A DNA stretch of 64,000 bases, taken from positions 5,890,001-5,954,000 of the forward strand of contig OZ024746.1 in assembly GCA_964016885.1 (NCBI GenBank), given 5' to 3'. Position numbers and translations under genes: made by a program. The notes beneath the pieces were generated by a model. The model saw only the letters and a program-made list of their open reading frames with translations. It was not told where the DNA came from and did not search any database. This stretch comes from Eledone cirrhosa. Taxonomy: Eukaryota. Positions 47,405-58,181 of this stretch are shown piece by piece; positions within the stretch are counted from its first letter, which is position 1; each line of letters starts with the position of its first letter.

Positions 47405-47592
47405 ACGGAGGAAATGTAGTAAGGAACCAGCTGGACCATAACGCACCAAAGTACTCAATACTTAGGGTAGTAGAGTGGGTAATAGGAACGAGTAGGACCC
47501 CGACGGCTGAGCTCAAGCCGTTTCGACGGCTAATTCAGAATTAGCCGTCGAAACGGCTTGAGCTCAGCCGTCGGGGTCCTACTCGTTCCTAT
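47405..47592 (-). mobile_element. Short fold-back element with a perfect 111-bp palindrome; sister of 57991-58181
   Basis: 55-bp arms around 47537; (TA)n on both sides. Confidence 0.9.
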
Positions 47593-47785
47593 ATATATAT
47601 ATATATATATATATATATATATATATATATATATATATATATATATATAAATGAAAAGTATAGAGATTATTGTAGCAAGAAGCCAACAGTATTCCATAAT
47701 ATATAAGTGACTATAGCGTCAAAATGGAAAAATAGTTAACGTAAGATGTGGGAAAATAATTCAAACTCAAAAAATATATATATAT

Positions 47786-48175
47786 ATATGTTATAAACGC
47801 CATACCACCTGAGAAGGCGGTCAAGAAAGCACTAACCACCTAAGCTAAAAAAGTCAAGCTAAACAGGTCAGACAAAACAAATGATAAAATCATGCATATA
47901 TATATATATATATATATACTTATAGTTATATATATGTGTAAATGTATATATATATATATGTATGAGTTTATCATTTATTTTGTCTGACCTGTTTAGCTTG
48001 ACTTTTTTAGCTTAGGTGGTTAGTGCTTTCTTGACCGCCTTCTCAGGTGGTATGGCGTTTATAACATATGTTTATAGCTCTGGGTTTTTAAACTATGGAA
48101 CGCTTGCCAGCAAGACTCTGAATTTGCGTTACGTTTCGCTTTTTCTACCCGTCGAAATGCGATTCACGCTGAATT
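47786..48175. repeat. Fold-back insert in (TA)n, arms of about 110 bp
   Basis: 47786-47897 is inverted against about 47958-48070. Confidence 0.85.
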
Positions 48176-48432
48176 TATATTTGTATATATATATATATAT
48201 TGAAAGGATACCTGCAATAACTCCAAGTCACACCCCCTAGACACACACACACACACACACACACACACACACACACACACACACACACACACACACACAC
48301 ACACACACACACACACACACACACACACATATATATATATATATATATATGTATATATATATATATATATGTATGTATATATATATATATATATACATAT
48401 ATATATATATGTATATATATATATATATATAT

Positions 48433-49915
48433 ACGGGATAACAGGTTATCGTTATGGCAGTCCACTTAGATGTAGTCCAGTTCGAGTAGTTCGTGTAGTA
48501 GATAGTATTAACGTGTGGCTTAGTTTGACTCAACAAGACGTTTCCATAGTGATGCTGCGAGTTCGCGGTGATTTCTATGTAGTTTATACTTGGAGTAATA
48601 ATAATTCAAGAAAGAAGAGTGACATGGTTCGCTATACAATAAGAGATTTATTCACATTGCTGACAATTGTTTCTTTGATCTGGTAGGTCTAGAGCTCGCT
48701 ATCCGCCTGATTATGCGCCAATCGATCTCCAATACTTTGTTTATAAACAGTCGTTTTCATCATTCTTGTGAAGAAGATACATAATGCATGGTTTTTATAT
48801 AGGTGTGGTATTAAACCAGAACAATAATATCAATGATAAAATAAAATAACTAGATAGCAGATAGTTAAAATAATAAAGTCAATATAAGTAAGAGATAGAG
48901 TATAATGAAGAATCTAGCATGTTAAACAAACTGATATGATACAGATGTATGGAATTGACGTGTGAAAACTGCTATAGGGTACATTAGATATAGTGATGGG
49001 GTGGCGACTAGATAACAGTAACCAATAAATGGACTTGGAGACATGAATTTATGAGGTATCCACTATGCTGTAGGTATTCTGGAAATAAACCGGAGATTTA
49101 CTTTTTATTTTTTATTTGACAGGTAAACATTTTCGTTTGATTAATTTAGTGATGATGATAGTTTTTATGTGGTGTTAAATAGAGTTGTAGATTCGTTATT
49201 TAAGTGTCCTATACTAAAGTTAGGGATTGTTAGTTCGAATCGTGGGGTTTAGTTTTCACAGCATCAATAACAAATCGTGTATAAATAAGACAGTGATAAC
49301 AACAATAATTATTTCTACTTTAGGCACAAGGCCAGCAATCACCAGTATATTACTGGTACTTTATTTTATCGACCCCGTAAGGCAAAGTTAACCTTTCATC
49401 AACAATAATAGAAGCAATAAAGGGAATAAAATAGTAAAATGTGCATGGTAGATATAGAGAACATGATGAATAATATTAGGGATACATTGAGATGTTCATA
49501 ATAATAATAATAAGAAGAAGAATAATAAGAGGAAAGTGAGATTTCAAGGGGTGTAGGAGTAATAAGATAATGTACTTAGAATTAGGTTCATCTGTTAGAG
49601 ATCATGAGTGTTAATGAGAGATATAATTGCTTGGTTCGAAGGAGTGGGTAACAGCAAAGGTGGGATTGATTTATGGGCTGATAAGATAGTTGTAGACATA
49701 TTCCAGTGGTATAGAATTAGGGAGGCTATAAGATATTTATAGAAGATTATAGTTCCGTATTGGGCTGTGTGAGAAGGCGTATTTCATATGTTAAAAGCTA
49801 AGTGATATAGCGAGCTCTAGACCTACCAGATCAAAGAAACAATTGTCAGCAATGTGAATAAAGCCCTTATTGTATAGCGAACCATGTCAATCTTCTTTCT
49901 TGATTTATTATTATT
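48433..49915 (-). mobile_element. Old PLE-like insert with an inverted terminal segment of about 105 bp, interrupted by a SINE fragment at 49305-49395
   Basis: 48597-48703 is inverted at 49808-49912; (TA)n at both ends; weak PLE-like peptide remnants on the minus strand. Confidence 0.55.
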
Positions 49916-50902
49916 ATATATATATATATATATATATATATATATATATATATAAAAGAGAAAACACAGGTAAGCATTAAGAGAAGGATTTTATCCAGGT
50001 ATTTATGACCGTTTCATTGGTAAGTGCAACCTTATATTGCTATACTGCAAATAGCAGCCACTCAATTATAATTGTTGTTCACAGTCCAAATTTTCAAAAT
50101 AGTAAGTTACTCTTGAAATACTTCTTAATATATAGAGAAAAACATTTATTTGGAATTGTATTTACTAGTATAGAGAGATAGGAATCAGGAGGTGAGGGGA
50201 CAGACGGCATAGTATAGAGAGAGAGGACGGGGGAAGAGGTAGGAAGTAGAATGACAAACTGAGATGGAAGGAGGGGTAGAGGTGGAAGGATTCTTTGGTC
50301 AGTTTTGATAGCAGACATCATGTCGTGGAGTGTAGTGAGTTAAAGAGAATTAAATAGATAATAGTGGGAGGGATGGATAGAGAGGGAGAGAGAGAGAGAG
50401 GGGGAGGAGATATAAAGAGATAATATATATATATATATATATATATATATATATATATACACATACACACACACATACATATATATATAAAAATAAAAAT
50501 AAAGATAATAATGACAAAAATAAAAGCAAAGAAGGGGGTGAGAAAGAAGAAAAGAAAAGATAGCCAAGAAGGGGGAAGGAGGGAAGAAACCGAAGAAATA
50601 GAAGAGGAATGAGGGAGGAGAGGGGGGTATATGTATTGGTTTTGTGGGTAATTAAAGGGTTTAGATATAAGAGGGTATAAAGTCTAAGTATATGCAGTTT
50701 GTCAGTTAGAGAAGCAAAAAATTGCTTATTGTGATCCAGTTTTTGGTTAAGAAAGCCAGTTTCATGGATGGTTTCAACGTACGGTTAGGGGTAACTCCAC
50801 AAGTTTGTAAGAATTCCGTTCAATCTTGGAGTATAAAGTATAAAAGAGAAAACAATAAATGTTTTTCTCTATATATTAAGAATTATTTCAAGAGTAACCT
50901 AC

Positions 50903-55703: not shown

Positions 55704-56200
55704 TTGTTGTTACTGTTGTTGTTGTTGGTGGTGGTGTTATTGTTGGTGGTATATTGGTGGTGGTGGTGTTGTTGTTGTTGGTGGTGGTGGTGTCACTGGT
55801 GTTGTTGGTGGTGTTATTGCTGTTGTTGTTACTGTTGTTGTTGTCACTGTTGTTATTGGTGTTGTTGTTGGTGGTGGTGTTGGTGGTGTTGTTAGTGGTG
55901 TTGTTGGTGGTGTTGTTGTTGGTGGTGGTGTTGTTGGTGGTGTTGTTAGTGGTGTTGTTGGTGGTGTTGTTGGTGGTGGTGATGTTGGCGTTGTTGTTGT
56001 TGTTGGTGGTGTTGGTGTTGTCGTTGGTGGTGGTGTTGGTGTTTTTGTTGGTGGTAGTGTTGGTGGTGTTAATACTGTTGTTGTTACTGTTGTTGTTACT
56101 GGTGTTGTTGTTCTTGATGCTGTTGTTATTGGTGTTGTTGGCGGTGTTGGTGTTGTTGGTGTTGTTGTTGTTGCTGTTGTTGCTGCCGTTGTTGTTGTTT
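55704..56200. repeat. (GTT/GGT)n tract
   Basis: Direct reading. Confidence 0.95.
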
Positions 56201-56994
56201 TATCAAGAGTAGTTTAACAATGTTATCCTTCTTTTGTTGGGGGTCATTATTATATCAGATTATTATCGGAAGGTTAATGTTTATCTGTTTTTCCTAATAG
56301 ACTCTACTTATGTTTCCACAGCATAAACTTATATTTTCAATATTTTCTTACTCTCTCACCTGCTCTTGTCTTTCAATTCTACCTTTTAACGTATTTATAT
56401 ATATTTATTTGCACACGGTAAAAGGGACTATTTTCAGAGCACCTGATAAAATAGGTCAGGTTAAATATGTCTTAGTAAAAGGTAAAAGAAACTAAAAATA
56501 TTTCTAAAAGATTTAAAAAGAAAACCTTCAAATAAATAAGAAAAACACACACAAAAATACACAAAATAAACCGAGAAAAACACAGATAAAACACAGATAA
56601 AACATACACCCCACAAAAAAATCACAAATAAAATTACGTTAGAAAGCAAAATTGAAACAAAATAAAAGGAAAAACAGAGAGAAAAATAGTGGCATGGTAC
56701 TGGTAGATCTATACACAGAGATGTTTATACACCTGAGACCACCAACAGACACACACATTTACGCAACACGTGCACATACACACAGATACACACATCTTTC
56801 TCTCTCTCTATATATATATATATTTATGTTTTTTGTTTTCTGTTTTAACTATATATATATATATATATATATATATATATATATATATATATATATATAT
56901 ATATATATATATATATATATACATATATATATATATATATATATATATACATATATATATATATATATATACATATATATATATATATATATAA

Positions 56995-57770
56995 TGAAAA
57001 ATTTGAACAGGGACAGAACAGAGAGGCAGTACAATAAATGTTTATTAAATTCACGCTCAGGAGAGTGGGGGGTAGGTGGGGGACGACGTTTCGGGCATAA
57101 GCCCTTCCTCAGGTGAGAAGTGTGTGGGAACAGAGTTCAAAAGGTGTGTAGGGGAGTGGTGGAGAGACATATAGCGAAAGGAAACGGTGCGAATGAAAAA
57201 TTAACAAATAAAGATAAAAAATAAAAATAAAGCATGATCAAAATACAAGGAATGAGAAAATTTAAAAATAAAGGCATGATCAAAATAAACTGAAATTAAA
57301 AGGGGGGTAAACAGGTGGTGGAAGGGTGGCGGGTGGAGTGGGGAGAGGGAGACGGGGTGTCCGAGCGGGGAGGGCTGAAGGTGGTGTGTGTGTGTAGGTG
57401 TGCGTGTGTGGGTGTGTGTGTGTATGTGAAAGTGAGGGTTGGGGGAAGAACGGGGTTGCATGTTCAGGAAGAGGTGTGTATGGGGGGTGTTTTTGTGGGT
57501 CGGAGTGTCCGTGCGTGTGTGGATAGGGGGGTGGGGGAGAGGAATCAGGAGGCTGAGGGTGTAAATATGTGGTGGGAAGCAAGTGTGTGTGGGGTTTAAG
57601 CGTGTTGTGGTGTGGGTGGCGTGTGGAGAAAAAAACTTTTGGGGGTGTGTGTGTGGGTGAGTTATATAGGTGATGACGTAAGAGGATGGTTGAAAAGTTG
57701 GTAAGTTACAAGGATGTTTGGAGATTTGGTTATAAGTCAATTTCTGCGTGTGGGTAATCCATGAAGCGGA
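56995..57770 (-). mobile_element. Probable PLE 3' fragment with an HHR-like motif at 57083-57114, within (TA)n
   Basis: ac-CTGAGGA-a gggc ttat gccc-GAAA-cg-TC-gt; a related 3' end lies at 58440-58522. Confidence 0.6.
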
Positions 57771-57990
57771 TATATATATATATATATATATATATATATG
57801 TGTATATATATATATATATATATATATATATATATGTATATATATATATATATATATATGTATATATATATTATATATATATATATATATATATATGTAT
57901 ATATATATATATATATATATGTGTATATATATATATATATATGTATATATATGTGTATATATATATATATATATATATATATATATATAT

Positions 57991-58181
57991 ATAGGAACCA
58001 GTAAGACCCCGACAGCTGAGCTCAAGCCGTTTCGACGGCTAATTCTCAGAATTAGCCGTCGAAACGGCTTGAGCTCAGCTGTCGGGGTCTTACTGGTTCC
58101 TATTACCCACTCTACTACCTCAAGTATTGAGTACTTTGGTGCGTTATGGTCCACCTGGTTCCTTACCACATTTCCTTCGTT
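57991..58181 (+). mobile_element. Short fold-back element with a perfect 113-bp palindrome
   Basis: 56-bp arms around 58047; homologous to 47405-47592. Confidence 0.9.

Follow-up and report, generated by a model that had tools for sequence, protein, structure and literature searches.

A 64,000-nucleotide (nt) stretch of the Eledone cirrhosa genome (NCBI GenBank assembly GCA_964016885.1, contig OZ024746.1, positions 5,890,001 to 5,954,000 of the forward strand; this whole stretch is called the window) carries two short hairpin elements of one repeat family. We propose, at a probability of roughly 0.7, that they are short inverted insertions of a Penelope-like element (PLE) in (TA)n, each made from two cDNAs that were run off a capped RNA and joined at their ends. 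The direct observations behind this proposal are a parent element with the motifs of its clade, two fixed and coupled ends, arms that match each other, blunt and independent arm ends, and an extra G. The proposal would explain how PLEs form their characteristic inverted ends, and it predicts an exact capped start site.

Two hairpins in the window and their parent element

An initial annotation of the window had placed the two elements at 47405-47592 and 57991-58181, and both are indeed found there, in opposite orientation and within (TA)n. The hairpin of copy A covers 47482-47592 with perfect 55-nt arms and a 1-nt loop, that of copy B covers 57991-58103 with perfect 56-nt arms and also a 1-nt loop, and each has a 77-nt unpaired tail on one side only. 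In copy A the tail (47405..47481, minus strand) is the segment between the short and the long 3′ ends and adjoins (TA)n; its two boundaries presumably correspond to two start sites of the reverse transcriptase (RT). The tail-bearing arm of this copy (47482..47536, sense on the minus strand) holds the 3′ strand of stem II of a hammerhead ribozyme (HHR), GAAA, stem III, the predicted cut site and the 3′ strand of stem I. It is followed on the plus strand by the centre (47537) and the inverted short-end arm (47537..47592; GAAA at 47550-47553, predicted cut after C47572), whose terminus on that strand is TTCCTAT running into (TA)n. Copy B has its inverted short-end arm and centre (58047) at 57991..58047 on the minus strand, its tail-bearing arm at 58048..58103 on the plus strand (GAAA at 58061-58064, predicted cut after C58083) and its tail at 58104..58181, also on the plus strand, running into (TA)n. 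The three arm differences named earlier between the copies are present and symmetric in both arms, and 5 further letters differ in the tail. The two copies had been given the same fold-back centre, but the GAATT motifs are 1 nt apart in copy A and 3 nt apart in copy B. Likewise, the description as perfect palindromes is right for the arms of both window copies and wrong for the whole element, of which about 112 of about 190 nt are palindromic; genome-wide most copies are imperfect, with 86 mismatches in 3,708 arm positions (A/B hairpins scored). The 3′ half of a hammerhead, GAAA-CGGCT-TGAGCTC-AGCCG-TC-GGGG, is present in the window copies without the 5′ core, as had been noted.

The genome searched comprises 3.0 Gb. 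An arm 30-mer gave 31,159 exact matches, far more than chance would yield, and a tail 20-mer 39,767, against 0 for the reversed control in both cases. About 40,000 or more near-perfect palindromes are present in the E. cirrhosa genome. Spacing within the inverted pairs is mostly 0-29 nt and reaches 5 kb, and the same two ends are common to short hairpins and kilobase-size copies, which form a continuum. The long inverted copies contain single open reading frames (ORFs) of 710 and 786 amino acids (stop to stop) with an RT plus, at the C terminus, a GIY-YIG endonuclease (EN). Their motifs are RLRW(R), DKT, YRDD, CxCx5C, VIY..YIG, CxxC and CxH, the linker reading CNCPDRSIC (CxCx5C) and the EN being surrounded by CNLC (CxxC) and CKH (CxH), while CCHH in the EN is absent by eye. 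The parent of the hairpin family is almost certainly a PLE, and its protein motifs would place it in the Hydra clade, for which DKT replacing DKG, an RWK-type motif, the CxCx5C linker and insertion in (TA)n are described (Craig et al. 2021, PMC8557442). The assignment as an EN-bearing (EN+) PLE is based on motifs and by-eye likeness to Hydra-1_Ajap, and that to the Hydra clade on the protein; Pfam (E 0.001 and 1) and PDB sequence searches with the parent proteins gave no match. The target in the flanks of the inspected copies is (TA)n, as in the Hydra clade. In 313 copies the tail runs into the ORF, and tandem units measure 3.53-3.55 kb. Loci L076 and L074 show a pseudo-long terminal repeat (pLTR) from partial tandems, an inverted 5′-truncated copy and a one-sided tail; an inverted copy with a one-sided tail is known PLE architecture (PMC8557442, PMC3846280). 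At C1 91.47-91.49 Mb, C1 437.20-437.21 Mb and C2 320.55-320.56 Mb, 3-4 tail-to-ORF junctions are arrayed every ~3.54 kb, and these three tandem arrays are possible source loci of the family. We rejected the Naiad clade, in which the EN is N-terminal and not C-terminal as here. A non-LTR retrozyme would consist of short units in head-to-tail tandem, every unit carrying a complete type I HHR (2026 bioRxiv preprint); this class was also rejected, since the short copies are head to head with half a ribozyme each.

The proposed course of an insertion is as follows. Transcription would start inside loop II of the ribozyme, because of which only half of the hammerhead would be copied, and the RNA would read, from 5′ to 3′, ribozyme 3′ half, tail and ORF. 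The EN would cut both strands of (TA)n, each 3′ end would prime at one of two fixed sites 77 nt apart, and one RNA, or two from one source locus, would serve both primers. Both cDNAs would run to the capped 5′ end about 61 nt upstream of the short end, the extra G being the reverse-transcribed cap. The cDNA ends would then be trimmed by a few bases and joined head to head by host end-joining, with host repair filling in. For long copies, priming would have taken place at the downstream pLTR-tail sites of tandem transcripts, and the short hairpins are likely dead on arrival.

Coupled ends, matching arms and joints

Under a free choice of ends, 25% of hairpins would be expected to have two short and 25% two long ends. 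Of 8,093 A/B hairpins only 78 were short+short and 228 long+long (the search patterns for these two classes being slightly shorter than the one that yielded the 8,093); the remaining ~96% were neither, and nearly all copies viewed had one short and one long end. For a PLE protein, cleavage and extension of the two target strands have been shown, with RT starts at two internal sites that bound the tail and with uncleaved RNA as the template (Frangieh et al. 2024, PMC11167929). Ribozyme-cleaved RNA was rejected as the template here, as arm ends are not in excess at the predicted cut: the bin at 17-21 held 17 rows against 14, 14 and 18 in adjacent bins (hand count; 85 classifiable rows among 100 listed of 785).

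That the palindrome is regenerated at each insertion, as had been suggested, is borne out by the arms. On typing the 8,093 hairpins as A or B at two diagnostic sites on both arms, only 34 were fully discordant, so both arms come from a common template. The 34 hairpins with one A-type and one B-type arm compare with ~0.2 expected from double mutation. In L220-L231 some discordant hairpins join a B-type tail to an A-type arm, which suggests gene conversion or RT template switching.

For the joints we used the first 100 tail anchors of chromosome C1 (0-19 Mb), of which 74 parsed as short hairpins; 17 of these were dropped for low score or an insert >8 nt, leaving 57 junctions. In 28 of them the short-end arm exceeded the tail arm in length, in 23 it was the shorter one and in 6 the two were equal; a difference of 3 nt or more favoured the short-end arm in 18 and the tail arm in 9. 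No inserted base was present in 51 of the 57 joints, and 47 had 0-1 nt of microhomology, i.e. were blunt. Either arm may be longer in kilobase-size copies too (L074 and L075 vs L076), the short-end arm of L076 exceeding its tail arm by kilobases, and the position of the centre varies genome-wide, also within subfamilies. Self-copying does not account for these joints: a copy of a tail-primed cDNA contains no sequence missing from that cDNA, and a copy of a short-end cDNA would have no tail. We consider it likely that two joined cDNAs make the hairpin.

A single cDNA that reached the RNA 5′ end, or was made on an antisense template, might still have primed its own second strand if cruciform-type deletions later trimmed the centre on either side. 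Arkhipova et al. (2013, PMC3846280) put forward such self-priming to explain PLE palindromes with a head-to-head arrangement, and it would account for the matching of arms within copies; copying of an extra C would put a G in the opposite arm too, and the arms do carry internal deletions (13-15 of 100 rows). But it requires a later deletion in most copies, the tail arm being the longer by at least 3 nt in only 9 of 57 and the short-end arm in 18 of 57. It also leaves unexplained the 228 long+long copies and a halt of the second strand at a fixed site 77 nt inside, and it does not fit the zero-loop junctions that have an extra base in each arm or the kilobases by which the short-end arm of L076 is longer. 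We regard self-priming as unlikely; taken as a record on the scale of the genome, the tens of thousands of young insertions speak for two joined cDNAs instead.

The stop at position 61 and the parental ribozyme

The distribution of arm ends, counted from the short end, has its peak at 55-61 nt and its upper edge at 61-67, and almost no arm goes beyond 67. Both arms halt at the same template position despite primers 77 nt apart, and therefore the stop is set by the template. An initiator-like motif, T(T/C)AGTCC, lies there, with its A at position 61; no convincing match to a DPE-like downstream promoter motif was seen by eye. Directly 5′ of position 61, all 78 parent-type copies have T or C and none has G. 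Among the matches listed (100 of 2,418; hand count), the non-T base before AGTCCAG was G in 52, C in 45 and A in 3, some elements being counted twice, once per arm, and a script applied to 30 loci gave G 16, C 13 and A 1. For loci not picked for this base, the G:A ratio of 19:8 at position 61 contrasts with 22:41 at five positions elsewhere (p=0.003). Several junctions have the extra base in both arms, e.g. TGGACTC joined to GAGTCCA, and some are without a loop. In L1 and SVA, a 5′ G without a template is taken as a sign of cap copying (PMC4859970), and on these sequence grounds the stop is probably a capped transcription start. As separate observations, L115 and L185 have a run of 16-17 A after the cDNA end at position 61, which suggests that A was added at the end of the template, reiteratively or without templating, and L234/L235, L262 and L276 have short head-to-tail repeats whose restart falls exactly on the stop position, in agreement with template jumps at the 5′ end of the RNA.

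Alternatively, twin priming may have occurred with the stop being not a capped start but an RNA-structure or protein block in loop II, followed by C addition through terminal transferase activity. The stop is spread across ~10 nt, and a weak hairpin begins at 57-65 nt; yet this hairpin has only -3.2 kcal/mol, while stem III, at -8.7, is mostly passed by the RT. The extra base is position-specific, and the second hairpin family of the window (described below) halts outside its own ribozyme with the same extra base. At the stop of that family a hand count over 50 elements gave 19 C vs ~4 T and 3 A unexplained, and a script gave 9 G, 10 parental C, 4 A and 1 T of 24. A block of this kind is accordingly rather improbable.

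Several points weigh against two cDNAs run off a capped RNA. The start site and the cap are both inferred from DNA sequence. The match at position 61 to what we take to be the initiator consensus, YYANWYY / TCAKTY, was noticed post hoc, and a TATA-like box is not conserved across subfamilies. As to the extra base, 45 of the 100 listed bases are C, either the parental variant or the partner's extra base, and a narrower test made before gave only 11:4 for unexplained C vs T at position 61, a weak result. Most arms, those of both window copies included, end 1-6 nt short of 61, therefore trimming must be assumed. In 30 tandem copies, 6 halt again at 55-65 in the upstream pLTR, which speaks for the proposal, but ~15 run through; as the upstream site is passed more than it is used as a stop, transcripts starting further upstream are needed. 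The junction statistics are from C1 0-19 Mb only, with 43 of 100 anchors unparsed or dropped. Finally, arm matching fits one RNA or two RNAs of one active locus alike and cannot separate the two. Nor are the discordant arms decisive as proof of two RNAs, because 4 of the 12 discordant copies inspected are patchworks, suggesting gene conversion.

The short hairpin could also be a non-autonomous element, like a short interspersed nuclear element (SINE) or a miniature inverted-repeat transposable element (MITE), copied as a unit from few masters. The copy number is very high and some centres recur (one of them in 16 of 127), and the centre of copy A is shared by nearly all of its 30 best matches, which were chosen by likeness to copy A. 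Against this, each subfamily holds many different centres, subfamily variants are symmetric in both arms, the short copies are without the upstream sequence and the downstream ORF start that the PAc protein needs on its RNA, and a continuum leads to kilobase-size copies with the same two ends. Copying as a unit is thus quite improbable, and repeats of this hairpin kind, instead of being MITEs, may arise as by-products of an autonomous element.

The remaining reading, that of the initial annotation, was that the cDNA snaps back at stem II of the ribozyme and overwrites the 5′ half. Its recognition of the motif as the 3′ half of a hammerhead was correct, as the 5′ half exists in the long parents. 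Parents with CUGANGA upstream, whose lack it had named as refuting, are literally absent, but only because the complete fold that the parents do contain has a variant U3/C3-A8 core. CTGANGA directly 5′ of CGGCTAATT had 13 genome matches with no parent among them. The parents read ACCCC-YTGANAA-G-YTCGGCTA, followed by a loop II of ~35-40 nt and then the 3′ half, a pattern with 3,614 matches. A hand count of the first 100 of these gave 64 U3-A8, 34 C3-A8, 2 U3-G8 and 0 C3-G8, so that the canonical CTGANGA core made up 0 of 100 parent cores among the matches listed. In 22 parents the three stems of a type I hammerhead were paired to 100% (stem I), 99.4% (stem II) and 87.9% (stem III), as compared with 29-56% in slid controls; covariation in the stems was weak (2 pairs in the 22 parents), and neither the window nor three long copies gave a hammerhead match with Rfam. 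The U3-A8 swap is a known natural variant that is active in vitro and present in Schistosoma PLEs (PMC4209133, PMC3088659). The parents of the hairpin family share this core swap with the U3-A8 hammerheads of those reports but differ from them in that about one third of parent-type copies have an unpaired C3-A8, and in their long stem III with a palindromic loop.

The complete fold in the parent and the clustering of centres just upstream of the stem II 3′ strand do agree with a snap-back at stem II. Its expected product, however, in which the parental loop II is kept as a spacer and the arm starts at stem II, was present in 0 of 33 loop-II-holding copies (a sample partly selected for parent cores), and the sequence of the left arm complements the 3′ strand exactly instead of being that of the parental 5′ strand. 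Overwriting by fold-back is also contradicted by the arm-length symmetry (short-end arm longer in 28, tail arm in 23 of 57) and by the 0-1 nt microhomology in 47 of 57 joints. The further claim that the ribozyme fold determines the insertion structure fails in the second family, where an intact CUGAGGA core is found downstream of the centre and the whole ribozyme is present in each arm; the ribozyme fold does not set the hairpin centre. A stem II snap-back is accordingly very improbable. A fold-back artefact of reads or assembly has a negligible chance: palindromes within (TA)n are difficult to assemble, but the ends are fixed, the left and right flanks are different, private arm mismatches and discordant arms occur, and contigs of two public runs have loose TA ends at both element ends, public-run contigs sharing both TA-joined ends and a depth step (one study, possibly the assembly's own sample).

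Other elements of the window and known systems

A copy of the second family is present at 8602..10017 on the plus strand, with a Hydra-type ORF piece (8602-9720, CxCx5C linker), a canonical minimal hammerhead (CTGAGGA at 9889-9895) and an end in (TA)n, the terminal segment with the hammerhead covering 9875-10017; this minimal hammerhead has a palindromic loop III. A short hairpin with tail of the same family is found at 44560..44775 on the minus strand, both arms containing the whole hammerhead and the centre lying ~12 nt upstream of the core. Genome-wide, 242 hairpins of this family (strict pattern) have a complete canonical CUGAGGA ribozyme in both arms. A family-1 and a family-2 hairpin lie within ~500 nt of each other at L048 and L262 (C1 2.988-2.990 Mb), the former with mirror-image flanks, possibly as part of a larger inverted duplication. 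A further TA-flanked Hydra-type PLE spans 49945-54396; its inverted flanks measure ~760-795 nt, its ORF is represented by pieces at 51220-53586, and it has an inverted or duplicated piece inside. The TA-flanked inverted repeat at 5186-6318 (387-nt arms, internal duplication, CTGATGA near the right end) is possibly a third PLE family. Long palindromes are present at 60328-61306 (478-nt arms, 23-nt loop), 47779-48076 (~140-nt arms around TA) and 16750-17000 (~110-nt arms), and tandem repeats at 58797-60108 (unit 46 nt), 21686-22534 (61 nt) and 4200-5025 (~41 nt). Neighbouring retroelements were seen by eye in L075 (1097-3), L077 (4009-6028), L083 (5849-3387) and L081 (8545-9999), their types being a different PLE-like RT family, LTR-type pol and LINE-type (long interspersed nuclear element) RTs.

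On comparison with Hydra-1_Ajap and Hydra-1_Obim of the Hydra clade (PMC8557442), the parent shares the C-terminal GIY-YIG, the RW-type motif, DKT, CxCx5C, CxxC and CxH, as well as the (TA)n target, a hammerhead near the 3′ end, the inverted 5′-truncated copy and the one-sided tail; its N-terminal KNIPIP region resembles Hydra-1_Ajap by eye. A canonical hammerhead is typical of this clade (Craig et al., PMC8557442), and all the Hydra HHRs listed there are CTGANGA with short loops, whereas the core here is YUGANAA with a loop II of ~35-40 nt. The tail is 77 nt vs 30-40, the unit 3.5 kb vs less than ~3 kb, and most copies are ~190-bp hairpins, unlike the Hydra elements described in that paper, in whose supplement short motifs of the hairpin family were not found. 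The clade, the (TA)n target, the tail and the inverted structure are already known. The origin of the tandem and inverted structures of PLEs is named there as an open task (PMC8557442).

With Poseidon PAc in vitro (PMC11167929) the family would share cutting and extension of two strands, two internal starts and an uncleaved RNA template, and differs from it in that both putative start sites end in TAT matching the target. In that paper the steps after first-strand synthesis are still unvalidated, the later steps being left open, and palindromes and head-to-head joints are not mentioned (PMC11167929). In the open literature we found no proposal of head-to-head joining of two cap-terminated cDNAs for PLEs; subscription papers on Penelope from 2005-2008 may bear on this.

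PLEs in general may integrate by symmetric double target-primed reverse transcription (TPRT), in which one ribonucleoprotein cuts the two target strands and copies one capped RNA twice from two fixed sites, an extension to which we give even odds. A single step would then produce the inverted pLTR together with the tail and the palindrome at the centre, no separate second-strand step being required, and the distance of the start sites from the cap, ~60 and ~140 nt, would make strong-stop hairpins of most events. Only tandem arrays would then propagate, and cap-G hairpin centres would map PLE transcription starts from genome sequence alone. In L1 twin priming the inverted part is a different, upstream segment of the RNA, whereas here the same RNA segment would be copied twice from fixed sites. 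Shared with L1 twin priming (PMC4859970) are an inversion with small indels at the joint and, on the proposed reading, priming on two strands and an untemplated G from the cap. In Adineta vaga, PLE palindromes arranged head to head (Arkhipova et al. 2013, PMC3846280) have the inverted pLTR, the junction palindrome and the optional tail in common with the hairpins; they were explained by self-priming on an antisense template (PMC3846280), whereas the junction statistics obtained here favour two sense-templated cDNAs.

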